From NCBI GenBank assembly GCA_963674705.1, contig OY771506.1, positions 608,001 through 672,000 of the forward strand: DNA of 64,000 bases, given 5' to 3'. This DNA is from Phycisphaeraceae bacterium. Its GTDB lineage: Bacteria; Planctomycetota; Phycisphaerae; Phycisphaerales; Phycisphaeraceae. A model generated the notes under the pieces. The model made no database searches. It was not told where the DNA came from and saw only the letters and a list, made by a program, of their open reading frames with translations. The position numbers and the translations under genes are program-made. Shown here in pieces: positions 13,944-27,407 of the stretch; positions within the stretch are counted from its first letter, which is position 1; each line of letters starts with the position of its first letter.

Positions 13944-14138
13944 TCAAGCTCTTGTGTGGCTGTTCATCAGTTGATCCAGCGCGCGGACGTGCTGTGGGCC
14001 GTAGCGGCGGTGGCCGCCGACCGTGCGGTGCGACGGCGGGATCAGGCCGAGGCGTTCCCAGACGCGCAGCGACTCGGGCGATACGCCGAAGCGGTCAGCG
14101 AGTTTTCCGATGCTCATCATGTGAAGTTCACGTTCCAT
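13944..14138 (-). CDS. Small MerR-type helix-turn-helix protein
   Basis: MSIGKLADRFGVSPESLRVWERLGLIPPSHRTVGGHRRY is a MerR HTH signature; no effector domain. Confidence 0.8.
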   Translation of the reverse strand: MERELHMMSIGKLADRFGVSPESLRVWERLGLIPPSHRTVGGHRRYGPQHVRALDQLMNSHTRA

Positions 14139-14406: not shown

Positions 14407-14488
14407 TGAGGTGGGACGGAGTTGAACCGCCAGGGTCTTTCGACGGCTGGGTTACAGCCAGCGGGGCCTGCCAATGCCCAACCACCTC
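14407..14488 (-). tRNA. trnY: tRNA-Tyr(GTA)
   Basis: Cloverleaf; anticodon arm GCTGG-CTGTAAC-CCAGC; long variable arm; no CCA. Confidence 0.9.
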
Positions 14489-14616
14489 GGATGAGCCGTT
14501 AGCCGTTAGGCTTTGGCCATGAGCACGGAGTTGTTCCGCCTTTGGCGGATGGGGGCAGCAAGCTGCCCCGCTTAACGGCAAGCCTTTTTGCGCTAACAGA
14601 TGGTGGCTTCATAAAG

Positions 14617-14701
14617 CGGAAGGCGGTGGGCACGATCCACAAACTCAAACGAGTCCCGACCGGTTAGCAACCGGTGCCCGTCCCCGACGGGTTCACCTTC
14701 C
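14617..14701 (-). tRNA. trnS: tRNA-Ser(GCT), atypical T-loop
   Basis: ACCGG-TTGCTAA-CCGGT; long variable arm; T-loop reads ATCGTGC rather than TTCRANY. Confidence 0.8.
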
Positions 14702-14805
14702 TGGTGTATGTAGGCTTGAGGCGTGAGTCTTGAGGCTTGATTAAGCATGCAAAACGTAAGCATTGCGATACTCAAGCCTCATCCCTCAAGTCTCAAGCCT
14801 TCCAA

Positions 14806-14876
14806 AGGCCGGGGCGGGAATCGAACCCGCTTGGACGGGGTTGCAGCCCGTCGCCTTGCCATTCGGCCACCCGGTC
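14806..14876 (-). tRNA. trnC: tRNA-Cys(GCA)
   Basis: ACGGG-CTGCAAC-CCCGT; U73; A2-C71 mismatch. Confidence 0.88.
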
Positions 14877-14931
14877 TTGTGAAGAGTGGATGGATGTGAA
14901 TTGAAGCAATAAAAACCGTTAAAATCCACAT

Positions 14932-15822
14932 ATGGACTTTCTATTCTGCTGTTATCCAAATCGCATTCGTGAAGTTGATCCGGATTATCAGGCCGAGGCT
15001 GATTGCGTAAGACAACTCAGTTCATCTGTGAGTTTGTTGGATCATGACGCTCTGCTTGAGGGAAGTGTCTCCAAATCAATCCGAGGCGTTGAATCCCGTA
15101 CAGATCAGAAACAGCTGTGCTATCGGGGGTGGATGATCCCACCGCCGTTGTATAAACAGCTATACGAGGGTCTACTTGAAAAGAACCTAGTGCTAATCAA
15201 TTCACCCCAGCAGTATCAACATTGCCATTACCTGCCGGATTCATATGAATCTATCAAAGGCAAGACGCCTGAGACTGTGTGGATCCCGGGACGACCTCCG
15301 TTTGATCCAGCACAGATCATGGCGGCAATCAAACTGTTTGGTGGCAAACCGTTGGTCCTGAAAGATTATGTGAAGTCGCAGAAGCACTATTGGAAGGAAG
15401 CCTGCTACATACCTGACTCAAACAAGCAAGATGAAGTCATGTCCCGGGTTAACAGGTTCATCGAGCTACAGTGTGATGACATCGAGGGTGGATTGGTGTT
15501 TCGCGCGTATGTGCCGATCAAGATCATTGGGCGACATGCGGTTAGTGGTATGCCGTTAAGTCATGAATATCGTGTTGTGTGGTTTGAACAGAATCCGGTT
15601 GTGGTTTGGCCTTATTGGGATGCTGCTGATCCGAGGGAATGTGATCCGCCTTTGGATGCATTTCGCGAAGTCGCGAACCAGATCAACAGTCGGTTTTTCA
15701 CGATGGATATTGCTGAGCTTGACGACAGCAGTTGGATCATTGTTGAGCTAGGCGATGCGCAGGTCGCAGGATTACCGGAGAATGCTGATCCGGTGACTCT
15801 GTATAAACCGTTAATTGATTGA
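14932..15822 (+). CDS. ATP-grasp domain protein (R2K-clade-like)
   Basis: YRGWM, CHYLPDSY, VLKDYVKSQKH, GGLVFR, EYRV and FFTMDIA..W.IVELGDAQVAG. Confidence 0.8.
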   Translation: MDFLFCCYPNRIREVDPDYQAEADCVRQLSSSVSLLDHDALLEGSVSKSIRGVESRTDQKQLCYRGWMIPPPLYKQLYEGLLEKNLVLINSPQQYQHCHYLPDSYESIKGKTPETVWIPGRPPFDPAQIMAAIKLFGGKPLVLKDYVKSQKHYWKEACYIPDSNKQDEVMSRVNRFIELQCDDIEGGLVFRAYVPIKIIGRHAVSGMPLSHEYRVVWFEQNPVVVWPYWDAADPRECDPPLDAFREVANQINSRFFTMDIAELDDSSWIIVELGDAQVAGLPENADPVTLYKPLID

Positions 15823-15850
15823 CTTGGCATATCAGAATGCAATTCAAAAA

Positions 15851-15922
15851 TGCGGCCGACAGGGATCGAACCTGCTCCTCCGCCGTGGCGGGGCGGCGCT
15901 CGGCCAATTGAGCTTCGACCGC
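15851..15922 (-). tRNA. trnG: tRNA-Gly(GCC), atypical (A8, C33, A73)
   Basis: CCGCC-CCGCCAC-GGCGG; standard D and T arms. Confidence 0.85.
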
Positions 15923-15956
15923 GTGGTGGGTAGTTCGTTGTGATATCGATTAGAAG

Positions 15957-16029
15957 CACGCACGGTAGGGGTTGAACCCACATCTGGTGGATTTGGAATC
16001 CACTGCTCTGCCGATTGAGCTACGTGCGT
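15957..16029 (-). tRNA. trnW: tRNA-Trp(CCA)
   Basis: GTGGA-TTCCAAA-TCCAC; G73. Confidence 0.92.
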
Positions 16030-16179
16030 GTGGGGAGAGCTGTTAGCTGTTAGCTGTTAGCCGTCAGTAAGAAGTATTCCGCCTGCGGCGGATGGGGGTA
16101 GCAAGCTGCCCCGCTAAACGGGGAGAACGCGAAACGCGAAACGGCTTGAGCTAATGGCTAAGGGCTAACGGCTCATAAA

Positions 16180-16251
16180 CTGCACCGGCAGGAATCGAAC
16201 CCGCAACCGTCTGCTTAACAGGCAGCCGCACTACCTTTGTGCTACGGTGCA
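16180..16251 (-). tRNA. trnN: tRNA-Asn(GTT)
   Basis: CTGC-CTGTTAA-GCAG; U1-A72; G73. Confidence 0.9.
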
Positions 16252-16302
16252 ATGTGTGTGATTGACTAAAGCCTCACCGCTCAAGTCTCAAGACTTTTCA
16301 AA

Positions 16303-16375
16303 TCACCCCGGCTGGGGTCGAACCAGCACGCTGCCGTTTAGAAGACGGCCGCTCTTCCGTTTGAGCTACGGGGCG
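16303..16375 (-). tRNA. trnR: tRNA-Arg(TCT)
   Basis: GCCGT-CTTCTAA-ACGGC; GGAA D-loop (A20). Confidence 0.9.
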
Positions 16376-16432
16376 ATGCTCGACTTATTCGATCGTTATT
16401 GACAGCGTGATGCGATACCTGACAATGCGGGT

Positions 16433-17470
16433 ATGTATGAAAATCAAACCAACAGTGACGGTGATAAAGGACCGGGGGCTGAGGCTGTCGCTCGTGTGGT
16501 TGACGCGGCGAATCAGCATCCCGATGAAGGGCCAACGGAAGAACTGATCACTGCGATCAATGAATTGGTTGCACAGGACAAGCATCTTGATGCGAACACG
16601 TATCGAGCCTTGTCGGAGAGCATCAAGCAGATACGGTCGCCGATGAGTGCGGGATTCGTCGCTGTCTGGTTAGGTGCGACGGTTGAAAATGGTGCGGACC
16701 CGCATGTGCCGTTGCCGCATGTTCTTGAATACCTGTACAACCTGATCGCCACGATCCAAACGCCGAAGGACGATGAGCCGGATGATGCGGTCCCCGAACC
16801 GGGCGAACTTGTGCAGCAAGCATTGGATCACCTGGGGCAGGCGCTGGTCGCGATGTTGATACGTTGTCCCGATGCGATCAGGGAACTCATCCGGCGCGAG
16901 CAGGCTGTATCCGAGCTTGAGCGCGTGGAGCATCTGGCGAGTGGACCCAAGTGGATATTAGCGTTACTTAGACAACGCAGCGGTGAGTTGCTTGTATTGC
17001 ACGGCGTTGAAGGGGTCGGCGTTCGTGTGAAGTATGAGAATATCGAAAACTGTTTTCACCTGTTCACGCTCCTTCAGGGTTTACTCCAGCGTGTGATGCC
17101 CGGCGCGAAGACGCAAAGCACGACGATGTACAAGATCGCGCGGGGTGAACTGGTCGGGCAGGTGCATGACTCGGCGTGGTGGCATTACGGCCGGGCCGGG
17201 GTGCCGAAGGCGGACTTTGTCGGGATGGTCTTTGGCGAGCCGACGCTAGATTCGATCGATGAGGTTGACGGACAACAGGTGTTGCTGCTCTGGCCGCCGA
17301 TCATCGCGGATCGTTCGTGGAACTCTGGCTTTTTCCAGCCGATCATCGATGCCAGGAAGCCGAACGTTGAGTTGCTGGAGAAGCTGTCGCCTGACGAGGT
17401 TAAACGCTGGCGCGAACGGTTGGGTTTGCCTGCGGCAAAGGCGCGGCCGTGGTGGCGTTTCTGGTCTTGA
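16433..17470 (+). CDS. Hypothetical protein ending in a RPWWRFWS motif
   Basis: 345-aa ORF filling the space between two tRNAs on the opposite strand. Confidence 0.75.
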   Translation: MYENQTNSDGDKGPGAEAVARVVDAANQHPDEGPTEELITAINELVAQDKHLDANTYRALSESIKQIRSPMSAGFVAVWLGATVENGADPHVPLPHVLEYLYNLIATIQTPKDDEPDDAVPEPGELVQQALDHLGQALVAMLIRCPDAIRELIRREQAVSELERVEHLASGPKWILALLRQRSGELLVLHGVEGVGVRVKYENIENCFHLFTLLQGLLQRVMPGAKTQSTTMYKIARGELVGQVHDSAWWHYGRAGVPKADFVGMVFGEPTLDSIDEVDGQQVLLLWPPIIADRSWNSGFFQPIIDARKPNVELLEKLSPDEVKRWRERLGLPAAKARPWWRFWS

Positions 17471-17483
17471 CCGTGAGTATGAA

Positions 17484-17555
17484 AGCCGGCGGCCGGGATC
17501 GAACCGGCGCCTCCGTGGTACGAGCACGGTGTTCTGCCTGTTGAACCACACCGGC
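17484..17555 (-). tRNA. trnT: tRNA-Thr(CGT)
   Basis: CCGTG-CTCGTAC-CACGG; G1-C72, C2-G71. Confidence 0.9.
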
Positions 17556-17632
17556 GATAAAACCCTCGGCCCGAAGACCGAGGGCTGCAGAGAAAAAACG
17601 CGAAACATTCGCATGCAGACACCATTAAGAAG

Positions 17633-17705
17633 TGGCCCCGGTGGGACTCGAACCCACACCCAGCGGATTAAAAGTCCGCTGCTCTGCCGATCGAGCTACA
17701 GGGCC
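17633..17705 (-). tRNA. trnK: tRNA-Lys(TTT)
   Basis: GCGGA-CTTTTAA-TCCGC; A73. Confidence 0.92.
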
Positions 17706-17869
17706 TTGTCGTGTTGTTTTAAAATGGGAGAGCGAGCAGGCTGGCAGCCTGCGGCTAATGGGTGAGTGCGTTGGGATGAAGTTGTTGAAAACAAGATAGC
17801 CAGTTGATCTACGATGTTTCGCGGCGGGCTTTGTTACCCTACACCCCACACCCTAAACCCTATCCACAA

Positions 17870-17943
17870 TGCGCCGTGTCGGCCTCGAACCGACCACCTG
17901 CTGGTTGGAAGCCAGCCGCTCTGCCGAGATGAGCTAACGACGC
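17870..17943 (-). tRNA. trnG: tRNA-Gly(TCC), A73
   Basis: GCTGG-CTTCCAA-CCAGC; GCG acceptor start. Confidence 0.9.
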
Positions 17944-18024
17944 CAGGTATGTTTCATTTCTGCATGCTCTGTGTGGCGCAGTCGCAATACGGCCACGGCC
18001 GATCATCTATAATGGGCGGCACCG

Positions 18025-19896
18025 ATGGGACAGCTTGCCGAGAATACGGTGTTGCGATCACAACGTGTTTACAAAACCCGTTGGATCTCGGGTTTTGTCC
18101 TGATCTCTGGTGTCACGATGGCTGGCGCCTGTCTGTTCATCATTCTCGCGACATTGCTTGCGGGCAAATCCAGCCCGATCATGCAAGTGATTGTCACAGT
18201 CTGGCTGGGGATCACGGCAGCTTTCTTTCTCTGGTATCCACTTCACATGTTCAGCCGATCGCTGACGCGATATATCTTCACACCTGAAGCGTTAATTGAA
18301 CGTTCGCTGTTCCGCAAGCAGGTCATGCCCTGGCGTGACGTGACGGATTATTCCGTGGTGGCTGGTGACGCGGGGGAGCCGTTGTCACACATCATCTTTC
18401 ATCTGGTCGACGGCCAGACCAAACAACTGCCGTTGGACCTGATCCCCGAAGGCCGGGTGGAGACGTTACTTTCGGCATATGTGCCGTTGATCGCGGAGCA
18501 TGGGTTGGAGCGACCGAGGCAAGCCGGATCGTCAAAAAGCGAACTGCGTAAAAGCACACGGAAGGAAGCCATCTCCGATTGGGCTACTCTTTGTTTCAAC
18601 ATTTTGTTTGGTGGGATTTGTATCACAGTATCTGTCTTTCTCATGCTTGGTCGCATGGAGTATCAACTAATCATCAGCGATCCGGTGGAAGTGACCGCGA
18701 CGGTTATTGAACTGGATGTTGATGAAGAGGATGCATCGTTAACATTTGAATTCACTGACGATCAAGGCCATGTTGTCCGATCTAGCCGGTCGGTCGAGGT
18801 GAGCACAGCTAAAACATTGGCTGTAGGCAGCGAAGTAACCGTCAAGCACCTGCGTGGTTCACCTACAAAAGTCCGATTGAAGAAGGGCGATCTGGATCAC
18901 CAAGAGTGGCTGTACGTATTCGTCAGCTTCCCGCTGGGGTGGTTGTGTATTTGGGGGTGTTTCCGGCTGCTCAGGTCGATTTTTGGGCCTAAGACAAAAT
19001 CGGCGTCATGGTCGGTCCAGTCTAATTATGACGAGGCGATTATCTCGTACAGCCCGGCATATATGGAAACCAGTGTTGCTATGATCCCCGAGCAACATGT
19101 CGGTGCGGCGGTTTTTCTTCGTCTGAACAGCAAGGAAAACAGCAATCAATTCGTGGATCAGATGTCCACTTTTTCACCAAGCTCGCATGAATTGAACGGG
19201 AACAATATCCAGTGTGAAAACATTGCCGGGATTTTCCTGTGTATGGGGCCCGTGGCGATGTCTCGTTTTGTATCCCGCTTGGGCGAGCCGGCCAAGACCC
19301 GTGCTGAATATGTCGTGCTCGACATGGCGGACAGTGTGGAAGTAAGCCGGTGGGCGGTACGGAATGATCCGAGGCATCGCGACATGGATGAATTATTCAG
19401 CGATGAAGTCGTTCGGTTCTGTTGCCGAAATAACACGGTTGGGCCGGTGCAGCCGGGTGAACTGACATACGTGTTTGATCGATTCATCATGCAAATGATC
19501 AAAGCCCTGTGTGAAGATCAGACGCCCGCGGGGCTATACGACGTCAGTATCTGTCAAATCCTGAATCTCTCACCCAAAGACCTTGATGCCAGGATCATGC
19601 TGTCGCTGCAGATGAACCGGTTGCGGATTTTTGTGCAGCTGCGCGGCGTCAATCAAGCTTCGGTGGCTGAGTATCAATTTGGACAGTGGCGGCGCACCCC
19701 GGAAATGCCCGTGCCATTAAGCATGCGCAACTTCAAGTGGTTGAAGTATGTGTTAGCGCTGCCGTATGGTCCGTGGCTGATATTGCCGGTGTTACCGTAT
19801 CTCATCTACTGGGCGATGGAATTGCCATGCAAATGGTATCGGCACTTTCAATTGAATAAAGCGCGGGCCGCGTTGTTGCAATCTTCCTCGATCTGA
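18025..19896 (+). CDS. Multi-pass membrane protein (bacterial PH-like plus DUF3592-like segments)
   Basis: 623-aa ORF with several hydrophobic helices; VTATVIEL...FEFTDDQG...VGSEVTVKHL resembles DUF3592. Confidence 0.7.
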   Translation: MGQLAENTVLRSQRVYKTRWISGFVLISGVTMAGACLFIILATLLAGKSSPIMQVIVTVWLGITAAFFLWYPLHMFSRSLTRYIFTPEALIERSLFRKQVMPWRDVTDYSVVAGDAGEPLSHIIFHLVDGQTKQLPLDLIPEGRVETLLSAYVPLIAEHGLERPRQAGSSKSELRKSTRKEAISDWATLCFNILFGGICITVSVFLMLGRMEYQLIISDPVEVTATVIELDVDEEDASLTFEFTDDQGHVVRSSRSVEVSTAKTLAVGSEVTVKHLRGSPTKVRLKKGDLDHQEWLYVFVSFPLGWLCIWGCFRLLRSIFGPKTKSASWSVQSNYDEAIISYSPAYMETSVAMIPEQHVGAAVFLRLNSKENSNQFVDQMSTFSPSSHELNGNNIQCENIAGIFLCMGPVAMSRFVSRLGEPAKTRAEYVVLDMADSVEVSRWAVRNDPRHRDMDELFSDEVVRFCCRNNTVGPVQPGELTYVFDRFIMQMIKALCEDQTPAGLYDVSICQILNLSPKDLDARIMLSLQMNRLRIFVQLRGVNQASVAEYQFGQWRRTPEMPVPLSMRNFKWLKYVLALPYGPWLILPVLPYLIYWAMELPCKWYRHFQLNKARAALLQSSSI

Positions 19897-19915
19897 GCCC
19901 GACTCACAAAATCAA

Positions 19916-19990
19916 TCAGCCCGGCTGGATTCGAACCAGCGATCTCTCCCGCCCGAAGGGAGCGTGATGACCAAGCTTCACCACAGGCTG
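19916..19990 (-). tRNA. trnP: tRNA-Pro(CGG)
   Basis: CTCCC-TTCGGGC-GGGAG; C1-G72, A73. Confidence 0.9.
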
Positions 19991-20120
19991 TTAAGCACAA
20001 TGCATAGTTGATTGAGTGTTCAATCAAATATAGTTCACACGAGATTGCTGGCCCTCACCCCGGCCCTCTCCCAAGGGGAGAGGGAGTAAAACACTAAGCC
20101 GCAAGCGGCTTTTGGGTGAA

Positions 20121-20192
20121 TCAGGGGAGAGGGAGTCGAACCCGCTTCCTCGGGGTCACGGCCCGAAGCTTTACCGCATAAGCTATCCCCTG
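20121..20192 (-). tRNA. trnH: tRNA-His(GTG), atypical (no G-1:C73; C1-G72, A73, C33)
   Basis: TCGGG-CCGTGAC-CCCGA; acceptor CAGGGGA/TCCCCTG-A. Confidence 0.8.
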
Positions 20193-20233
20193 AATGACGG
20201 GCCCCCGATCCCGCCTCATTGAATCATGTGTGA

Positions 20234-20482
20234 TTATTGTCTGAAGTAATGGCTGCGGTTTGAGCCGTCGAGTTTGCCGGTCTTCATGCAGCACTTCTTA
20301 AAAGCGTTTGCCGCTGCCGCAAGGACATGGATCGTTGCGGCCGAGCTTTTCGATCAGTTCTTTGTTGCCATGAACGCATTGGTCGCCCCGCTTGACTTGT
20401 GACTCGGACGGGTAGCCGTAGCGTCGCTTGCTCATGGGCTGGAAAGGATTGGTCGTCGTTAAAAGCGATGGTCCTTGTGCAT
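20234..20482 (-). CDS. SEC-C motif zinc-binding protein, split across frames (candidate +1 programmed frameshifts)
   Basis: AAAGGAGGT SD plus ATG 20482; [15 protein letters not shown] stops at TAA 20298 and the motif-completing KKCC lies in the +1 frame. Confidence 0.75.
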
Positions 20483-20548
20483 GGTGCACCTCCTTTGATA
20501 ATAGATTGTTACCACTCACACTCCCCCTCTCTTGCGTCAGAAGTTATA

Positions 20549-21529
20549 ATGCAGGAGATGAAATTACGGCCTAAAGCATTAGAAAACTTGGCGGTAATGA
20601 TTTGCGGAAATAAAGATGATCCGTATGGAATACCATTTTCATATCGCTCTAGTTCATACTTAACAGGTTTCTTTTCTGAGTGTGACTTAACATTTGTACA
20701 TGATGGCTCAACACGTAAAAGGTGGGTACTAGATGTTCTAAATTCACTAAACCAAAATGTCGCAAGTATGCCCGATCTCCCCTCAGATGACCTGGTTCGG
20801 GTAATCACCGAATTAATGGATCCAGACCATTTTGACGCGGAAGATACCGATCGAGGACAGGCCTTGAACAAGTTAAACCAAACTCTCAGCCGAGATTCCT
20901 TGATCGCATATATTGAAAATAATGGGCAGTGTTATTTACGACATACAGGCGCTGGTACAACATCTGCAATGTTGCCTCAACGACCCCGCCCACTATCTCC
21001 AGAAGAAAAACAACAGCGAGACACACTGTCCAAATTTCTCGATAACGCGAGCGAAGACGAGTTTACAGAAACAGTACTAGTCCCATTATTTCAGCGCCTT
21101 GGATATCACAGAGTCATAGCATCGGGGCACAAAGAAAAAGTATTAGAATTCGGGAAAGACTTATGGATGAAGTTTCAATTACCAACTGCCCATTGGATAT
21201 ACTTTGCCATACAGGTAAAAAGAGTGAAAATTGATGCCAAAGGTAAAAGCAGTGGTAATGTTACAGAAGTACTCAATCAGGTGAGAATGGCTCTGGACCA
21301 CGAGATATTTGATCCCGATGTAAATCGAACAGTACTACCAGATCATATCTACGTTATTTCGGCTGCAGAGATAACCCGAGCAGCACAAGCTTGGATCATT
21401 CGACATCTAGATAGAGAACAACGACGTCAAATCATCTTCATGGATCGCACGGAATTATTGAATTTCGCAGCTCGAATAGTTACAGAACTACCAACGCCGA
21501 ATTCTATCGATGACGAAATACCTTTCTAA
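20549..21529 (+). CDS. Putative PD-(D/E)xK restriction-endonuclease-like (Mrr-like) protein with AbiJ-like N-terminus
   Basis: EDEFTE..LVPLFQRLGY, EFGKDL and AIQVK catalytic-type motif; visibly more AT-rich than its flanks. Confidence 0.7.
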   Translation: MQEMKLRPKALENLAVMICGNKDDPYGIPFSYRSSSYLTGFFSECDLTFVHDGSTRKRWVLDVLNSLNQNVASMPDLPSDDLVRVITELMDPDHFDAEDTDRGQALNKLNQTLSRDSLIAYIENNGQCYLRHTGAGTTSAMLPQRPRPLSPEEKQQRDTLSKFLDNASEDEFTETVLVPLFQRLGYHRVIASGHKEKVLEFGKDLWMKFQLPTAHWIYFAIQVKRVKIDAKGKSSGNVTEVLNQVRMALDHEIFDPDVNRTVLPDHIYVISAAEITRAAQAWIIRHLDREQRRQIIFMDRTELLNFAARIVTELPTPNSIDDEIPF

Positions 21530-21532
21530 AAA

Positions 21533-21605
21533 TCAGAGCGGCAGGACTCGAACCTGCGGCCGCCTGGTCCCAAACCAGGCGCTCTGCCAACTGAGCTACG
21601 CTCTG
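21533..21605 (-). tRNA. trnP: tRNA-Pro(TGG)
   Basis: CCTGG-TTTGGGA-CCAGG; C1-G72, A73. Confidence 0.92.
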
Positions 21606-21664
21606 TGATAAAGCCCGGCCGGGCGCGCTTGTGAGAAGCGGCCCGATGGCCGGGGATATAGGGG

Positions 21665-22279
21665 TTAATCGTGCAACTCGGTGTTCCAGTACGCGGTGTC
21701 CACGAAGTGTTTCCACGTGTCGTGGCGGAACCGATGCGAACGGAACATGAGTGCCGTCGGGTCCGGACGCTTCGGCTGACGGATCAACTTCAGGCCGGCC
21801 TCTTCGGGCGTGCGGTTGCCTTTGATCGCGTTAACTTCGACGCAGCAGCAAACCAGGTTTTCCCAATTCGTCTTGCCGCCACGCGAGGTGGGGATGACGT
21901 GGTCGAGGTTCAGCTTGCTGGCAGGGAGTTTGCGGCCGGTGTACTGGCAGGTGTAGTTATCCCGCAGGTACACGTTCTTTCGGCTCAAGCGCACGGCCTG
22001 GCGTTGCATACGCCGATCGAACCGCAGCATGCGGACGACGCTTGGGACGATGATGGCCGAGGTTACCGTTCGCACGAAGCTGTGGGCCTCGGGCTCGAAC
22101 TCATGTGCGAATTCACTGAGCTCGTGCCAGGATGCGAAGTCGTAAGCGCGATAGTTTTCGTCAACGGCTTCGACTCGGCCGACAAACAGATCGGCCAGCG
22201 CTTCAGCAGCGGTGATGATCCGCAGCGCGGCGTAGTTACGGTTCAGAACGAGCACATCATGCGACAGAGCCGACGTCAT
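21665..22279 (-). CDS. HNH endonuclease
   Basis: VLVLN, LSRKNVYLRDNYTCQY, LNLDHVIPTSRGG..WENLV..C..VNAIKG; AAAGGAGGT SD 5 nt before ATG 22279. Confidence 0.9.
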   Translation of the reverse strand: MTSALSHDVLVLNRNYAALRIITAAEALADLFVGRVEAVDENYRAYDFASWHELSEFAHEFEPEAHSFVRTVTSAIIVPSVVRMLRFDRRMQRQAVRLSRKNVYLRDNYTCQYTGRKLPASKLNLDHVIPTSRGGKTNWENLVCCCVEVNAIKGNRTPEEAGLKLIRQPKRPDPTALMFRSHRFRHDTWKHFVDTAYWNTELHD

Positions 22280-22381
22280 GGCCGACCTCCTTTCAGGATT
22301 GAAGTTGATTGACTGGTTTTGTCCCCTCTCCCCAGGCAACGAATTCGATCTGCGTTGCAACTTCTTACAGAAGAAAACTAT

Positions 22382-22548
22382 TAGCCACCGATGAACACGG
22401 ATGAACACAGATCAGAATAAATCCTGTTTCGTGTTTCGAACACATTGACTCAAGATGCCTGTTCTGACTACTTGAACTGCGATGAATCTGATGCACTTAA
22501 GCTTCTCTTGCTTTGCATCTGTGTTCATCCGTGTTTATCTGTGGCTAA
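22382..22548. repeat. Inverted-repeat element family B (GCCAC-GATGAACACGGATGAACACAGAT ... ATCTGTGTTCATC-GTGGC)
   Basis: Paired arms also at 25641-25733, 27282-27375 and 29209-29320; single arm at 6756-6787; related variant at 24143-24260. Confidence 0.85.
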
Positions 22549-22613
22549 AATTGGCTGGCTGAAGACTCCGAACGAATATGTTGCGAGGGAAGAGGGAGCA
22601 GGAGTAAAGCAAG

Positions 22614-22685
22614 TGGAGCTGCGGGGAATCGAACCCCGATCTCCCGGGTGCAAGCCGGGTGCTCTCCCGATTGAGCTACGGCCCC
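22614..22685 (-). tRNA. trnA: tRNA-Ala(TGC)
   Basis: CCCGG-CTTGCAC-CCGGG; G3-U70 present. Confidence 0.92.
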
Positions 22686-22696
22686 ATGAAAAGGAA

Positions 22697-22761
22697 TGTC
22701 GCGGAGAGGATTCGAACCTCCATCAACTGGGAAGTGCCTCTGCCGATTGGGCTACGACGAC
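22697..22761 (-). ncRNA. tRNA-like RNA or pseudo-tRNA lacking a normal anticodon arm (Leu-type D-arm)
   Basis: 65 nt: acceptor GTCGTCG/CCGCGAC-A, D-arm GCCCAATCGGCAGAGGC, perfect TTCGAAT T-loop, but only ACT-TCCC-AGT in place of the anticodon arm. Confidence 0.7.
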
Positions 22762-23993
22762 AAAATTAAAAAAAGTAAGTGGCCCGGGTGGGAGTCGAAC
22801 CCACAACGCACCGGATCTGAGCCGGCGTCCTCTGCCGGTTGGGATACCGAGCCGGAGATAGAGCAGGAGTAAAACAGAGCAGGAGAACAGGAGATAGGAG
22901 AGCAGGAGAAAAAGATAAGTGCTCTCGGCTGGGGTCGAACCAGCACGCCGTTGCCGGCAGCGGGGTTTAAATCCGCCGCGTCTGCCTGTTCCGCCACGAG
23001 AGCGTTTGTTTGTTTAACACGAATGCCGCCGGCAGGATTCGAACCTGCACGTTGCCGGGTTTGAGCCGGCTTCCTCTGCCGATTGGGATACGGCGGCCAG
23101 GTTGGTGCGTCGGGCGGGATGATGAGTTTGCTGCGATACGGGCGGACGGTTTGTCGCGGGGTGTGAAGTTGCCGAAAGCGTTTCGCTAGCAGCGTACAGA
23201 ATCGACAGTATTCAAGATCCACATCTTTTAGCTTAACTTGAATACAGCGTGAACCATCCAAGTATCTCTTAGCTTGCTTTTCGGCAATCTCTGTATACGA
23301 GCGTGCGTAATACGGGCCACCATAGATCCGCCACAACTCACTAATGCTGATAGGTGCTCTGCCCAGCACGGCGTCTATAAAGTCGAAACCCCAAGGGGGA
23401 TACCCCAAGATTCGCCGGGCGGTGATGGGCGCCAGGTCAATCATGAACCAACGATGACGCCGGTGATGCAATTGGAAACCGGCGCAGACATCAAAAAACA
23501 CACAAGGTGGGTCAAACTTTCTGCATGACCTAAACGACGGCGACATCATCAGTAGACCGGTGTCCGGATGCACATAGAACCGGTCGCGCCAATGGCGGCC
23601 CCAGATTGGTTGCCAACCGAAGGGGTAGCCGACCGAACAGGGTTGGCCGTCAATGATCCGGACATGTCGGACAACAAGCCAGAGCACGTGGTCGCGCACG
23701 TGGTTTTGAACGGTACTGTCAACCCGGACGTGTTGGCTGATCTCCGACCAGACATCGTTCCACGGCTTGCCGACCGAGCTCTGCAGGAAACGGATCAGTG
23801 GGGCCAGGTTTTCGCTTTGCCACTTCATATTTTTCCATGTCTGCCAGGCTCGTTTCATACCTTCTATATGGGGTAGGCCGGTGTCGTCATCGGCGTCGCG
23901 TGGTAATCGGTAGCGCTTGGCGCCACGGGGGAACTTATTACGGCAGCCTCCCCGCGGTCGCTCGACGATCAGCTTGGCCATGTCGCTTCGCAC
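22752..23993 (-). CDS. Arg-rich hypothetical protein (MRSDMAKLIVERPRGG...); frame runs on through three tRNA-Leu genes
   Basis: AAAGGAGGT SD 5 nt before GTG 23993; protein-like for about 250 aa (ENLAPLIRFLQSSVGKPWNDVWSEI, FYVHPDTGLL); first stop at 22752. Confidence 0.7.
   Translation of the reverse strand: MRSDMAKLIVERPRGGCRNKFPRGAKRYRLPRDADDDTGLPHIEGMKRAWQTWKNMKWQSENLAPLIRFLQSSVGKPWNDVWSEISQHVRVDSTVQNHVRDHVLWLVVRHVRIIDGQPCSVGYPFGWQPIWGRHWRDRFYVHPDTGLLMMSPSFRSCRKFDPPCVFFDVCAGFQLHHRRHRWFMIDLAPITARRILGYPPWGFDFIDAVLGRAPISISELWRIYGGPYYARSYTEIAEKQAKRYLDGSRCIQVKLKDVDLEYCRFCTLLAKRFRQLHTPRQTVRPYRSKLIIPPDAPTWPPYPNRQRKPAQTRQRAGSNPAGGIRVKQTNALVAEQADAADLNPAAGNGVLVRPQPRALIFFSCSPISCSPALFYSCSISGSVSQPAEDAGSDPVRCGFDSHPGHLLFLILSS
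22780..22853 (-). tRNA. trnL: tRNA-Leu(CAG), short variable loop, A37
   Basis: GCCGG-CTCAGAT-CCGGT; variable region only GCGTT. Confidence 0.85.
22920..23003 (-). tRNA. trnL: tRNA-Leu(TAA)
   Basis: GCGGA-TTTAAAC-CCCGC; long variable arm GCCG-GCAA-CGGC. Confidence 0.9.
23024..23097 (-). tRNA. trnL: tRNA-Leu(CAA), short variable loop
   Basis: GCCGG-CTCAAAC-CCGGC; variable region only AACGT. Confidence 0.87.
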
Positions 23994-24048
23994 GGCACAC
24001 CTCCTTTCTGCTGTTGCGGTTGTTGCGGTTGCTACGAAGACAGGACAA

Positions 24049-24121
24049 TCACCCCGGCAAGAATCGAACTTGCAGCCTTCGGCTTCGGAGGCCGATGCTC
24101 TTCCGGTTGAGCTACGAGGTG
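24049..24121 (-). tRNA. trnR: tRNA-Arg(CCG), A37
   Basis: TCGGC-CTCCGAA-GCCGA; AACCGGAA D-loop. Confidence 0.9.
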
Positions 24122-24292
24122 TTAGTGAAAACAAAAGCGGTTTGCCACGAAAAGGCACAGAAGACACAAAAGGGCTGGCTTAAGAAGCACAGAACATTGC
24201 GTAACAAACCAATTGAATACTCATGTATTTCTATTTTGTGGTTTTTGTGCCTTTTGTGGCTACTTCTTAGTCTTACATGAATGTGAGATTAA

Positions 24293-24365
24293 ACAGGCCG
24301 GCGGGATTTGAACCCGCAACCTGCCGGTTCAAAGCCGGCCGCTCTTCCGGTTGAGCTACAGCCCG
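24293..24365 (-). tRNA. tRNA with Gln anticodon (TTG) on an Arg-like body
   Basis: GCCGG-CTTTGAA-CCGGC; D-arm identical to the Arg(CCG) copy; C1-G72, U73. Confidence 0.75.
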
Positions 24366-24366
24366 A

Positions 24367-24438
24367 TCGACCCGGCGTGACTCGAACCCACGCACAGGCC
24401 CTTATAAGGGACCCGCTCTGCCACTGAGCTACGGGTCG
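24367..24438 (-). tRNA. trnI: tRNA-Ile(TAT)
   Basis: GGTCC-CTTATAA-GGGCC; A73; G52-A62 mismatch in T-stem. Confidence 0.82.
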
Positions 24439-24594
24439 GGGGATTCGATCTGAAGTACCAATTCAATTGGATTACCCGCTCGATCATGTTGCATACGAAT
24501 ACACAATGAATTCGGCCCTCACCCCGGCCCTCTCCCGAGGGGAGAGGGGGAAAGTACAAGCCTCAAGACTCACGCCTCAAACCTTTTCAAAAAG

Positions 24595-24667
24595 CCACCC
24601 CGGCAGGATTCGAACCTGCACCTTCCGGATTCGTAGTCCGGCGCCCATCCGCTTGAGCTTCGGGGTG
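24595..24667 (-). tRNA. trnR: tRNA-Arg(ACG), A8
   Basis: CCGGA-CTACGAA-TCCGG; A20. Confidence 0.9.
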
Positions 24668-24682
24668 AAGTACCCGACGGCG

Positions 24683-25396
24683 TTATGCAAACCGACGGGC
24701 GATGTATGTATTGATCGTGTCAACAACACGACGCTGCGATGCGAGCACATGGTCTGCGTGAAGTCGAAAATCACGAGGAATGTGGCCATGCTCATCGTAG
24801 GCCACCTCTCGCCAAAGGATCACCAGGCCGACGCCCGCGAATGTGTATTGATGGCGGTTTTCCGAAAAATGACAACGACGGACTAACTCTGCGCCGTACG
24901 ATACACGTGCCAGATCCCGGCCGAAGTTACCCGTCCAGGTCACGATCTGTTCGAGGTCGGCTTCAACAAGAGGCCAGCCGTTCGATGCAACAAGATCACG
25001 TAACGTCATCAGCTTCAGGACCCTCGCCATATCGCGATCACGTTTGCGTGGGTATACCTTATCGCCCAGCCGCCAGATCAGTCGATTGCAGAACCGGCAA
25101 CTGCAATGAATATCAACCGGTGTTTGCCGCAATGGGTGATCTGCGGAGGTATGTCCGAACGATACTAACATGCTTGTGTAAGCAACCATGTCAGCATCAT
25201 GAAGAAGTAGTTCTTCCGGGATAACGCCGCGGTTATTCACAAGCCAATCCGCAGCAGCTTCGCACTCAGGTATATGTTTGTGGTCGTGGTCGAACCGCAG
25301 GCCGGTTTTGAAACGGGCATCACGGAGCCAATCGATGAATGCGTAGACAATCTGTTGTACACGTATCGCCTGATCAACTGTTTGTTTTGTGAGTAC
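24683..25396 (-). CDS. Hypothetical protein with CxCxxC motif; start position occupied by GTA
   Basis: Open frame fills the Thr(TGT)-Arg(ACG) spacer; SD-like AAAGGCAGGT lies 5 nt before in-frame GTA 25396; alternative TTG 25417 has no room for an SD. Confidence 0.6.
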   Translation of the reverse strand, partial: VLTKQTVDQAIRVQQIVYAFIDWLRDARFKTGLRFDHDHKHIPECEAAADWLVNNRGVIPEELLLHDADMVAYTSMLVSFGHTSADHPLRQTPVDIHCSCRFCNRLIWRLGDKVYPRKRDRDMARVLKLMTLRDLVASNGWPLVEADLEQIVTWTGNFGRDLARVSYGAELVRRCHFSENRHQYTFAGVGLVILWREVAYDEHGHIPRDFRLHADHVLASQRRVVDTINTYIARRFA

Positions 25397-25419
25397 GATG
25401 CACCTGCCTTTGAGCAAAG

Positions 25420-25492
25420 AGCCACGAGTCGGGATTGAACCGACGACCTGCGGTTTACAAGACCGCTGCTCTGCCAGTTGAGCTACCGTGGC
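25420..25492 (-). tRNA. trnT: tRNA-Thr(TGT)
   Basis: GCGGT-CTTGTAA-ACCGC. Confidence 0.93.
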
Positions 25493-25538
25493 GGGGAACT
25501 TTCGGGGGGAAACTTCCGGGGGAAACTTCCGGGGGAAA
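25493..25538. repeat. Short tandem repeat (GGGGAAACTTCC-like, about 3.5 copies)
   Basis: Direct reading; the complementary CCCGGAAGTTTT motif recurs at about 26122, 26378 and 57163. Confidence 0.65.
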
Positions 25539-25539
25539 G

Positions 25540-25613
25540 CGACGCCGACGGGGATCGAACCCGTGACCTCTTCCGTGACAGGGAAGTGCTCTTGCCGATT
25601 GAGCTACGGCGCC
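25540..25613 (-). tRNA. trnD: tRNA-Asp(GTC)
   Basis: CTTCC-CTGTCAC-GGAAG; G73. Confidence 0.92.
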
Positions 25614-25754
25614 GTGCTTCAATCTGAATAGAAAGTATTTTTAGCCACGGATGAACACGGATGAACACAGATAAGATTTGAAAATATCTCATTCAGATCG
25701 TAATCCGTGTTTATCTGTGTTCATCGGTGGCTAATACAGGTTAATACAGCACAA

Positions 25755-25836
25755 AGCTACCGACGGGAGCCCCCGGTTTTGAACCCGTGACCGCCCGCTT
25801 ACCACGCGGGTGCTCTTCCGGCCGAGCTCCGGCAGC
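25755..25836 (-). tRNA. trnT: tRNA-Thr(GGT) with a 9-nt T-loop insertion (possible pseudo-tRNA)
   Basis: CCCGC-GTGGTAA-GCGGG; T-arm ACGGG-TTCAAAACCGGGGGCT-CCCGT; G8, G32. Confidence 0.65.
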
Positions 25837-25849
25837 ATTGTTAAAACAA

Positions 25850-25922
25850 TTGACCCGAGAGGAATTGAACCTCTTGCCCCCCGCTTATCAGGCGGGTGCT
25901 CTTGCCGGTGAGCTACGGGTCA
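25850..25922 (-). tRNA. trnI: tRNA-Ile(GAT)
   Basis: CCCGC-CTGATAA-GCGGG. Confidence 0.9.
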
Positions 25923-26000
25923 AGTCTGTAATAAAGCGCATCGCCCCGCCGCCCGATTGCGACGGGGCTTGCGATTTTTTTACATCCATCCACTCTTAAC

Positions 26001-26032
26001 TTGTCAATGAACGCGTGGCTGTAAACACAGCC
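26001..26032 (-). promoter_or_regulatory. boxB-like hairpin plus boxA-like antitermination signal
   Basis: GGCTGT-GTTT-ACAGCC followed 4 nt later by GTTCATTGACAA (compare rrn boxA GCTCTTTAACAA). Confidence 0.5.
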
Positions 26033-26039
26033 GACTAAG

Positions 26040-26111
26040 CCGCTGGTCCCGGATTCGAACCGGGGGCTCCCGGGCTTCAACCGAGCGCTTTACCCGCTAA
26101 GCGAACCAGCG
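26040..26111 (-). tRNA. trnF: tRNA-Phe(GAA), atypical (G37, C38, G73, C1-G72)
   Basis: CTCGG-TTGAAGC-CCGGG; acceptor CGCTGGT/ACCAGCG-G. Confidence 0.85.
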
Positions 26112-26185
26112 CCCCCCCGATCCCCGGAAGTTTTTCCCTCGTGTTATTCACACGGAAGGAATGCTTCCGGGGATCGGGTTAAAAG

Positions 26186-26257
26186 TCGCCGCGGTCGGGA
26201 TTGAACCGACGCACTTCCCCATGTAACGGGGATGCTCTACCGCTGAGCTACGCGGCA
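26186..26257 (-). tRNA. trnV: tRNA-Val(TAC), G32
   Basis: TCCCC-GTTACAT-GGGGA. Confidence 0.88.
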
Positions 26258-26439
26258 TCGTTGGCGCACCGATCGCGTGGACGGTTTTGGCCGTCTTTGT
26301 CGCACCGATCGGTGCGCCACTTTCGGGTTGTCTCGGCCGAGAAGGGATATACCCCCGTCTCTCAGCCTCTCCCCAGCCCCCGGAAGTTTTGTCACTCGCG
26401 CTACTCACGCGTAAGTAATCTTCCAGGGACGGTTGTTAA

Positions 26440-26511
26440 TGGCGGCGACGGGACTCGAACCCGTGTCTCCGGGACATGAACCCGGCAAGGAACCAACTCC
26501 TCCACACCGCT
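26440..26511 (-). tRNA. trnfM: Initiator-type tRNA-fMet(CAT), G37
   Basis: CCGGG-TTCATGT-CCCGG (three G-C pairs), A1-C72 mismatch, A11-U24. Confidence 0.85.
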
Positions 26512-26525
26512 ATTTACTTTTTAAG

Positions 26526-26599
26526 TCGCGATGGCTGGACTTGAACCAGCAACCTTTCCCGTATGAAGGGCGTGCTCTACACTTTTGAGCTACATCGCG
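26526..26599 (-). tRNA. trnM: tRNA-Met(CAT), elongator type, degenerate
   Basis: CGCCC-TTCATAC-GGGAA with two mismatches at the top of the stem; D-loop lacks GG. Confidence 0.7.
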
Positions 26600-26647
26600 A
26601 ATTTGTTGTTTTCGATCGTCCTTTCTTTTTAACACTCAAACTTTGAA

Positions 26648-26719
26648 TGGCCGCGGCTGGGATCGAACCAGCGCCCCCCTGCTTGTCGTGCAGGTGATCT
26701 ACCGCTGATCTACGCGGCC
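26648..26719 (-). tRNA. trnV: tRNA-Val(GAC), A32/C33
   Basis: CCTGC-ACGACAA-GCAGG. Confidence 0.87.
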
Positions 26720-26732
26720 ATGGGATAACCAA

Positions 26733-26803
26733 TAGCCTTGGCGGGAATTGAACCCGCGGCTCCGCCTTGAAAGGGCGGCGTGCTTCCACTGCACCACAAG
26801 GCC
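26733..26803 (-). tRNA. trnE: tRNA-Glu(TTC), first gene of the array
   Basis: CCGCC-CTTTCAA-GGCGG; U11-A24. Confidence 0.9.
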
Positions 26804-26872
26804 AATGCATAACGACAGTTACGTCGTTTCGAACGTCGTGTGGCGTCGGGTTTTGAGTCTGGGGAAGCGGGC

Positions 26873-27100
26873 TTACGCGGCGGATCGATCGCCCGGCATA
26901 AATCGCCGTGATCGACCTTTGCCGGCGGCCTGTGTCCCTGGTAGTAGCACGCATAACGCATGCCTGTAAATACCGAGGTAACTGAAGGCCGCTTGGCATA
27001 TGTCCGCAAGAATCGCGGACACGTCCCCAATGCCGCCAGACAGCATCGACGCACAGGACGTGCGTTCGTATGTATTCAGTTTTTGCTGTCTGAGGGTCAT
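26873..27100 (-). CDS. Putative leader ORF (75 aa) in the structured 5' leader of the tRNA array
   Basis: AGGTGA SD-like sequence before ATG 27100, just downstream of the promoter; overlaps several hairpins. Confidence 0.35.
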   Translation of the reverse strand: MTLRQQKLNTYERTSCASMLSGGIGDVSAILADICQAAFSYLGIYRHALCVLLPGTQAAGKGRSRRFMPGDRSAA

Positions 27101-27142
27101 CGGTTCACCTACTTCGTTAGAAGTTACTATTAACTGGCGAGA

Positions 27143-27171
27143 ACTATATCGGCGCATCGGCCGATGTGCAA
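27143..27171 (-). promoter_or_regulatory. Sigma70-type promoter of the tRNA array with a dyad in the spacer
   Basis: TTGCAC-N17-TATAGT; near-perfect palindrome GCACATCGGCCGATGCGC at 27152-27169. Confidence 0.65.
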
Positions 27172-27407
27172 CAGTAAATACGCGAATTCATGCAAAATTA
27201 TTGCAGCGCGTCGTCATAAGTTTAATAAATTGAGATTCTGGAGGAAAAAAAGTTGACGATTGGATCTATGAAAAAAGCATTTTAGCCACAGATGAACACA
27301 GATGAACACAGATAAGAATCAAATACATGGATTCATTCTGTTTGAATCCGTGTTTATCTGTGTTCATCGGTGGCAAATAGATTGGCTTTGATTAGCAGGA
27401 TGCATAC

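Follow-up and report, generated by a model that had tools for sequence, protein, structure and literature searches.

We analysed a 64-kb window (64,000 nucleotides of contig OY771506.1, positions 608,001 to 672,000) from the genome of a Phycisphaeraceae bacterium (G000), in which a long array of tRNA genes encloses a small gene for a protein with the SEC-C motif (PF02810). The reading frame of this SEC-C gene is broken three times, each time at a TTT-Y site, and conserved breaks of the same identity, with selection on the shifted frames and a number of shifts that clusters at three, recur in a widespread family which, judging from sequence comparison, is very likely expressed by programmed ribosomal recoding. 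Taken as a whole, the picture that we favour, a SEC-C gene decoded through serial programmed +1 frameshifts and riding in a partly decaying tRNA array of the stress type, has in our estimate a probability of roughly 0.5.

Conserved frame breaks in the SEC-C family

In the window, the breaks are TTT-T at 20464-61, TTT-C at 20445-42 and TTT-T at 20303-00, followed by the TAA at 20236-34; read without shifts, the gene stops after 7 codons. On the unshifted frame PF02810 scores 28.5 bits against a cut-off of 20.4, with only positions 1-13 of 19 matched, and the last two cysteines of the motif are encoded beyond the third shift. No NCBIfam model reached its cut-off in a scan of the product. No indel is listed for the gene in four sequencing runs, and a genome scan for multiple TTT-Y shifts behind a Shine-Dalgarno (SD) sequence and start passed 4 of 1043 such sites through a crude filter, the SEC-C gene among them.

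A search with the 45-codon core, covering 300 genomes of the phylum, GTDB genomes and viral contigs, returned 19 further loci from the phylum sample, at least 591 confirmed matches among 600 candidate stretches from GTDB genomes of many phyla, and 3 loci in viral contigs. Culturable carriers among the matches listed are Sphingomonas, Caulobacter, Massilia, Lysobacter and Pelomonas. We analysed 104 loci, namely 20 from the phylum (the window included), the best 80 of the at least 591 GTDB matches, the 3 viral ones and one from G310, a relative of G000. When an in-frame TTT followed by C or T is decoded as a 4-nt step, a single protein of 75-90 aa is restored in 90 of the 104 loci, 85 of which end before 35 aa when read plainly. 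The UUU-Y breaks, to which an earlier note on this DNA had drawn attention, are conserved and programmed-looking far beyond the array in which they were noticed.

Because this decoding rule is partly circular, the motifs flanking the sites were also located without it. After the CPCG motif, a +1 step is needed in 76 loci, 75 of which have TTT-Y, and none is needed in 27, none of which has TTT-Y (1 locus unclassified); at the next site, TTT-Y is present in 38 of the 41 loci that need a +1 step and in 0 of the 60 that do not (2 unclassified). The family thus has slippery sites that are conserved in phase and at which the tRNA can re-pair after the shift. For every site there are members that carry an in-frame version, which shows that the merged product is the natural protein.

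Purifying selection acts on the shifted frames, also past the breaks. For the three merged segments, the ratio of nonsynonymous to synonymous differences (pN/pS, uncorrected and with pS near saturation) is 0.21, 0.44 and 0.36, the last two values belonging to the segments beyond breaks, with stops in 0 of 102 sequences, whereas the other frames of these segments give 0.89-1.93 with 12-89 stops; for the two segments past breaks alone, the range in the other frames is 0.89-1.26, again with stops. The in-frame Phe of the G-F-P motif is encoded by TTT in 3 of 39 cases, against 15.4 expected from local genes, and where Tyr stands at that position TAT is not avoided (TAT 33, TAC 23). The four cysteines are invariant in the 65 aligned members read with +1 steps, which display the C-x-C...CC pattern of PF02810, and in about three quarters of members the SEC-C motif is split by a shift.

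Between two and four sites are found in 88 of the 90 rule-decoded loci. In a count set of 86 genes (the 104 without the 14 where the rule fails, a near-duplicate of the window and three loci with doubtful starts), 64 have three shifts, 14 have two and 8 have four. Three shifts are reached through five combinations of sites, which are negatively correlated with one another; site-wise permutation gives three shifts in 45% of genes, compared with 74% observed, and 0 of 20000 draws reached the observed value. The combinations are interleaved on a tree of the core DNA, which is poorly resolved (45 of its 83 forks are open). The pattern of sites hints strongly, without amounting to a measured probability, that the shift count is conserved more than the positions.

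Possible mechanism and competing accounts

In the mechanism that we propose, a strong SD sequence would load ribosomes onto the SEC-C mRNA, and at each UUU-Y the P-site tRNA-Phe would re-pair one base on, with UUU or UUC, a slip that slow decoding of the following codon, in many cases a stop, should favour. The basic protein of ~80 aa with its four-cysteine metal site would be completed only by ribosomes slipping at every site, usually three, so that the yield would follow roughly the cube of the per-site slip rate, near zero in healthy cells and rising steeply under translational stress. UUU_Ynn has been reported to be prone to +1 shifts in bacteria, also where no stop follows (PMC5009743); in the family, a stop codon occupies the unshifted A site at 103 of 259 shift sites, and 60% have a sense codon there. 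The shifting would be done by ribosomes and controlled by stress, and the product, which would act in translation or RNA repair, is probably a translation-stress sensor; that general translational stress is the input has, in our judgement, about an even chance.

The neighbours of the family were surveyed at the 80 GTDB loci, only 47 of which have the full 10 kb. An rtcB gene lies near 14 of them, an HNH gene near 11, a slipin gene near 9 and three or more tRNA genes near 12; counting HD-AAA, RNA ligase and PcfJ-like genes, and one type that we take to be Thg1-like, 24 of the 80 have at least one such neighbour. No tRNA occurs in the surrounding DNA examined for 78 of the 104 family loci. A general translational coupling to the downstream gene found no support: rtcB follows 6-27 nt past the stop in five gammaproteobacterial loci only, and a long open reading frame (ORF) starts within 3 nt of the SEC-C stop in 6 of 90 loci. 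Most copies are isolated genes with a strong SD, uncoupled from whatever follows, and their product is therefore likely to act in trans. Four loci from Planctomycetia (L016, L092, L105 and L125) share a GAACCT...GTGTCT-like motif ~40-70 nt upstream of the SEC-C SD, which resembles an alternative-sigma promoter.

In Anabaena, TrcR is reported to repress rtcB, HNH and slipin, and its loss to raise +1 frameshifting (PMC10272220), and the trn operon, a long tRNA array (L-array), to be induced by translational stress (PMC8421152). A far-reaching extension of our proposal is tentative, and we lean against it: the family would be a pan-bacterial "frameshift counter", in which about three interchangeable UUU-Y sites give a roughly cubic read-out of frame loss that triggers or assists ribosome and tRNA repair, with tRNA arrays that escape the determinants of MiaA and TrmD through exchanges of bases 37 and 38 as downstream or co-induced partners.

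Several observations weigh against the favoured picture. The rule fails in 14 of the 104 loci: four have an in-frame UUU-C in the core (L006, L008 and L108, and L140, which shifts twice there), one has a CTT-TGA site (L103), and the rest are broken or cut. The loci are best-scoring matches with non-independent relatives among them, and the rule itself helped to choose the start codons used for the leader site. Since kin are not independent and the tree is mostly unresolved, the statistic on three shifts is overstated. A recurring RNA-repair or tRNA neighbour is missing from 56 of the 80 GTDB loci, a count in which 47 loci have the full 10 kb. Finally, the array of the window and that of its relative G304 contain neither rtcB nor slipin, which occur in 6 and 5, respectively, of the 7 arrays of relatives (G304 among them) described below.

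It is unlikely that the serial frameshift takes its input from the modification of tRNA-Phe (ms2i6A37, involving MiaA and the Fe-S protein MiaB) under iron or oxidative stress, with the G37 tRNA-Phe of the array as a local booster; an undermodified tRNA would then slip and let the metal-binding SEC-C product be made. Nearly all classified shift sites are Phe codons, yet UUU is simply the easiest codon for a +1 slip. Loss of ms2 is reported to raise +1 P-site slippage 3-9 fold with tRNA-Phe and tRNA-Tyr (PMC5699536), MiaB holds a 4Fe-4S cluster (PMC13602947) and MiaA is encoded in G000, but the recurring neighbours of the family are RNA-repair and tRNA genes, and none of the neighbour clusters, five representatives of which were scanned against Pfam, was recognised as an iron-related or tRNA-modification gene. 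A G37 tRNA-Phe does stand beside the SEC-C gene in L113 and in the phage locus L139; against this, the arrays of G305 and G306 have the G37 tRNA-Phe and no SEC-C gene, and in the phylum genomes the G37 pattern was found in 1 of the 19 others with a SEC-C gene and in 12 of the 281 without one, with the proviso that the pattern search can miss tRNAs, that some of its 14 matches may not be tRNA-Phe and that metagenome-assembled genomes lose tRNAs.

The anticodon loop of the array tRNA-Phe reads UU-GAA-GC and that of the initiator-type tRNA-Met of the array UU-CAU-GU, both with G37 where the housekeeping copies have A37. Isopentenylation by MiaA needs A36-A37-A38 (PMC5699536), so with G37 the array tRNA-Phe has lost this motif. 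G37 is present in the tRNA-Phe of 7 of 7 same-genus arrays, and A37 in that of G136, from another family. The role of required decoder, which the earlier note had implied for the array's own tRNA-Phe, is rejected on the 1 in 19 figure for other carriers; the G37 tRNA-Phe may modulate shifting without being required for it. A quadruplet-anticodon tRNA was rejected, all Phe tRNAs examined having 7-nt loops. The viral contig L139 carries a phage cluster of tRNA genes, rich in those for Leu, Ser, Phe and Tyr; its SEC-C gene of three shifts lies among three tRNA-Phe genes, two of which have G37.

Quite unlikely, too, is a constant damper, in which the shifts would hold the amount of a small protein, toxic or needed in strict stoichiometry, to a low and fixed value in spite of the strong SD. 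The setting of a dose would explain why the shift number is kept better than the positions, and it agrees with copies that mostly stand alone, with so few long ORFs close behind the stop. A weak SD would, however, be the simpler way of damping, and the SD is strong (scored at 5 nt or more) in 90 of the 104 loci; the link to stress modules is also left unexplained. Loss of the extra base at the RNA level, by transcriptional slippage or editing and with ribosomes reading normally, is very improbable. The sites are T runs, 131 of the 259 being TTTT, but the other 128 are TTTC with three T only, the preceding base is C in 177 of the 259, the sites keep codon phase, and slippage typically occurs at homopolymers of at least eight bases (PMC3711429).

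The tRNA array and its cargo

In the favoured picture, which best explains the region, the SEC-C gene sits in a long array of supplementary tRNAs of the stress-induced type, with a fast turnover of the protein genes carried along. The 30 tRNA genes called with ARAGORN lie on one strand and are rarely periodic, as in L-arrays, and they are supernumerary: elsewhere G000 encodes a housekeeping set of 48 further tRNAs and tmRNA, and 29 of the 30 array anticodons are duplicated by housekeeping genes. The anticodon of tRNA-Ile(TAT), at 24367-24438, occurs in the array only, without a housekeeping copy, and is kept in 7 of 8 arrays.

When 40 relatives, several with incomplete genomes, were searched at the DNA level, syntenic arrays were found in 7, again the patchy distribution of L-arrays: G304 (96% identical), G305, G306, G307, G308, G310 and G136, which belongs to another family. 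The arrays agree in the order of their tRNAs, in the promoter and in a leader ORF of 75 codons, and not in the protein cargo; among the 8 arrays, HNH occurs in 7, the SEC-C gene in 5, and the two further cargo genes, gene 3 and gene 4, in 3 and 2. Compared with G304, 20549-21529 differs at 0 nt and 23097-23993 at 1 nt, and HNH and gene 4 differ at 18 nt each; the near-identity of the first two stretches suggests recent exchange between both lineages.

The earlier note had described a system in which three cargo genes were gated by frameshifting, non-stop rescue and non-AUG initiation and served by tRNAs of the array. What it had seen is there: the SD AAAGG(C)AGGT plus 5 nt at 20488-96, 22285-93, 23999-24007 and 25402-11, the UUU-Y breaks, gene 3 without a stop, the GTA start of gene 4, the intact HNH gene, the G37 tRNA-Phe and initiator-type tRNA-Met, and the likeness to the stress-induced trn/L-array class. 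The array limits that it gave were too short, as the 30 tRNA genes span 26804 to 14407, and it had overlooked the conserved leader ORF at 27100-26873. The SD pattern has 4 matches on both strands of the window, with ATG, ATG, GTG and GTA after 5 nt, and 28 in the genome, so that strong SDs are clustered in the array, for a pattern itself derived from these four sites.

The GTA of gene 4 is a recent strain allele and not a gate. It is a real allele, which two runs of a single study keep (X5, and X1, perhaps the source sample itself), but the start is GTG in G304 and in the contigs of X3 and X6, two runs that come from other studies, on which grounds a gate of the IF3 type was rejected. This strain alone has also lost 9 nt from tRNA-Leu(GAG) and has Leu at residue 65 of gene 4, where four related proteins have Pro.

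Gene 3 is open for 299 codons up to tRNA-Leu(CAA) and continues to 22752 across three tRNA-Leu genes. The stop-less state is common to G304 and a third strain, but the G000 and G304 genes differ at 1 of 897 nt and hence count as one observation. The distant homologues form a set of 9 loci, of which L037 ran off its contig and L040 was unreadable; all 7 complete ones have an ordinary stop after 212-291 aa and no tRNA in their vicinity. In G307 the gene is broken in many places and has an in-frame TAA in its 3' part, which aligns, behind a 2-nt gap, with an out-of-frame TAA of the window at 23235-33; the alignment is weak, ~50% identical near the stop, which makes the argument for an ancestral stop a moderate one. 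The 46 extra codons would be stop-free by chance in 19% of shuffles. The normal stops of the homologues, the aligned TAA and this chance background leave a non-stop gate unsupported, and a probable small indel before the ancestral stop is the simplest account. Searches for gene 3 in 150 genomes at the order level and in viral contigs found none, and a search of plasmids gave one match. Neither gene 3 nor gene 4 belongs to a Pfam or NCBIfam family, and an Atlas search gave unnamed clusters at most.

With genes 3 and 4 present together in 2 of 8 arrays, and gene 3 shattered in one of its three, the combined three-gate system is not supported and very improbable, even though all three defects are in the sequence; one programmed defect, that of the SEC-C gene, is set apart from two accidental ones. 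The refuting condition set in the earlier note, intact versions in homologous arrays, goes against a gate in gene 4, largely against one in gene 3, and not against one in the SEC-C gene. Decay, which the earlier note had named as the competing explanation, is the best account of genes 3 and 4, and recent disabling changes in these two genes and in two tRNAs best explain the state of the array. For the SEC-C gene it is ruled out: that decay of a silent array, or faulty sequencing, explains all breaks has a negligible chance, since the tRNA-Leu(GAG) deletion and the GTA nearby, the broken rtcB, HNH and gene 3 of G307 and the in-frame stop of the plasmid copy L163 are outweighed by the same codon, direction and positions in ~90 genomes of many phyla, by selection beyond the breaks and by the four runs without a listed indel.

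Table 1. Features of the tRNA array and its surroundings in the window
Feature	Position	Strand	Basis or remark
Long tRNA array	14407..26804	-	30 tRNA genes by ARAGORN; syntenic arrays in 7 relatives
SEC-C gene, 81-aa product	20234..20496	-	SD 20488-96, ATG 20482, stop 20236-34; three +1 sites
HNH endonuclease gene, intact	21665..22293	-	ATG 22279, SD 22285-93; Pfam HNH_5, E 1e-11
Gene 3, uncharacterised family (homologues 212-291 aa)	22752..24007	-	GTG 23993, SD 23999-24007; reads into three tRNA-Leu genes
Gene 4, 237 codons	24683..25411	-	SD 25402-11, GTA start 25396-94; no known family
Probable array promoter (TTGCA ... TATAGT)	27143..27171	-	Consensus scan; GCGCCGATATA unchanged in 8/8 aligned arrays
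Conserved leader ORF, 75 codons	26873..27100	-	AGGT-6nt-ATG and open frame in 8/8 arrays
Initiator-type tRNA-Met, three G-C anticodon-stem pairs, G37	26439..26512	-	Also in the G304, G307 and G136 arrays
tRNA-Phe(GAA) with G37, without the A36-A37-A38 motif	26039..26111	-	G37 in 7/7 same-genus arrays, A37 in G136
BoxA-like motif (25999-26010) and GC hairpin, Phe-Ile spacer	25943..26010	-	Conserved in 7 aligned arrays
Degenerate tRNA-Thr(GGT), 9-nt insertion in T arm	25768..25836	-	Insertion common to G304
tRNA-Leu(GAG), 9 nt of anticodon arm gone	22697..22761	-	This strain only
Antisense 326-aa gene between tRNA-Pro(TGG) and SEC-C gene	20549..21529	+	Recent insertion
Small MerR-type helix-turn-helix gene	13944..14138	-	Array 3' end; same place in G304, G308, G310, G136

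The array is probably transcribed from the single conserved promoter of Table 1, a part of the favoured explanation that is suggested by its conservation; the consensus scan is weak alone, with 10 matches against 10.4 in shuffles. In the leader ORF the first ~20 codons (QQ..L...ERTSCA) are conserved across the 8 arrays and the tail is variable, which makes it a candidate stalling or attenuator peptide for induction of the array. Upstream of the promoter, at 27205-27250 (-), a motif TCCAGAATCTCAA ... ACTTATGAC is conserved in the same-genus arrays and is a possible operator. The motif at 25999-26010, which we take to be boxA-like, forms with its hairpin a possible antitermination signal of the rRNA type; it is one mismatch away from TCTTTGACAAGT, a near-identical 12-mer that in G000 is located upstream of the 16S gene, ~1.8 kb from its 3' end, and also occurs in a dispersed repeat family of the genome. 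A search of the 5' region for known non-coding RNAs found none besides tRNAs.

The initiator-type tRNA-Met with G37 recurs in the arrays of G304, G307 and G136, and not in those of G305, G306, G308 and G310. Other array tRNAs differ from their housekeeping copies at the same bases: Leu-CAG, Arg-ACG, Arg-CCG, His, Gln and Asp tRNAs have A37 for housekeeping G37, and Cys, Tyr, Leu-CAA and Leu-TAA tRNAs have C38 for A38, swaps that are largely kept in related arrays. They may free the array tRNAs from TrmD and MiaA, or from anticodon nucleases. Two tRNA-Sec genes were called in G000, at C1:708446-708537 and 1821572-1821664.

Four antisense (+) genes lie between tRNAs, at 20549-21529, 18025-19896, 16433-17470 and 14932-15822, the last encoding an R2K ATP-grasp protein; two of the four are absent from G304, and tRNA ends look like insertion hot spots. 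The first is identical to its G304 counterpart (0 of 978 nt differ), absent from G307, G308 and G310, and bridged over in the contig of run X6. Inverted-repeat elements in the spacers (22375-22550, 24147-24230, 25645-25735 and 27283-27375) match many other places in G000 and G304 and are thus dispersed elements.

Comparison with known systems

Like the SEC-C gene, prfB (release factor 2) uses +1 slippage by P-site re-pairing at a phase-conserved site, often with a stop in the A site. Its site is CUU_UGA, the counterpart of the CTT-TGA in family member L103, and UUU_U is found in a minority of prfB genes (PMC5009743). However, prfB has one fixed site, an internal SD and feedback on its own product, whereas the SEC-C gene has two to four interchangeable sites, mostly three, with 60% sense codons in the A site, and does not fit autoregulation of the prfB type. 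Several conserved frame changes per product are known from Euplotes and from genes of Perkinsus mitochondria (PMC5011710, PMC9550989), where they are a eukaryotic decoding habit of the whole organism or organelle and not, as here, the property of one small bacterial gene family; the long ORFs neighbouring SEC-C loci contain 772 in-frame TTT-Y codons.

The signals for non-stop control of arfA and for the non-AUG start of infC are conserved across species. Those of genes 3 and 4 are not, and the likeness to arfA and infC is one of surface only. Among SEC-C motif proteins (the C-terminal metal-binding domain of SecA, YchJ and YecA), the C-x-C...CC pattern of the family matches the SecA and YchJ chains, but the family product is a stand-alone basic protein of ~80 aa with conserved flanks of its own.

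The array of the window resembles L-arrays and the Anabaena trn operon in being long, non-periodic, supernumerary and patchy in its phylum (PMC8421152), and it contains an HNH gene, whereas rtcB and slipin, likewise linked to that class (PMC8421152, PMC10272220), are present in related arrays only. It differs from the trn operon in its conserved promoter and leader ORF. The TrcR repeat over the -10 box had no match in the window at 1 mismatch in one of the two published spacings, the other spacing and a trcR homologue not having been searched. The available parts of PMC8421152 and PMC10272220 do not mention SEC-C, nor do those of PMC8421152 mention frameshifts.

No description of a SEC-C family with serial frameshifts was found in the literature searched, which included the accessible parts of PMC3711429, PMC5009743 and bioRxiv 2025.10.02.679949, although supplements and subscription papers outside it may list the family. 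If the proposal is true, hundreds of species share a gene family that depends on about three serial shifts and keeps their count better than their positions. This would be a new way of building a sharp switch from a leaky error, and the SEC-C gene would be a natural reporter of frame maintenance in vivo in cells that are exposed to antibiotics, have their tRNAs cleaved or lack tRNA modifications. Such genes would form a class that annotation misses or shortens, as a standard gene call captures one frame only. To our knowledge, known bacterial recoding genes have one programmed shift each. We assign the array of the window to the L-array kind and regard its SEC-C gene as a serial, count-conserved form of programmed frameshifting that is new in the literature searched.

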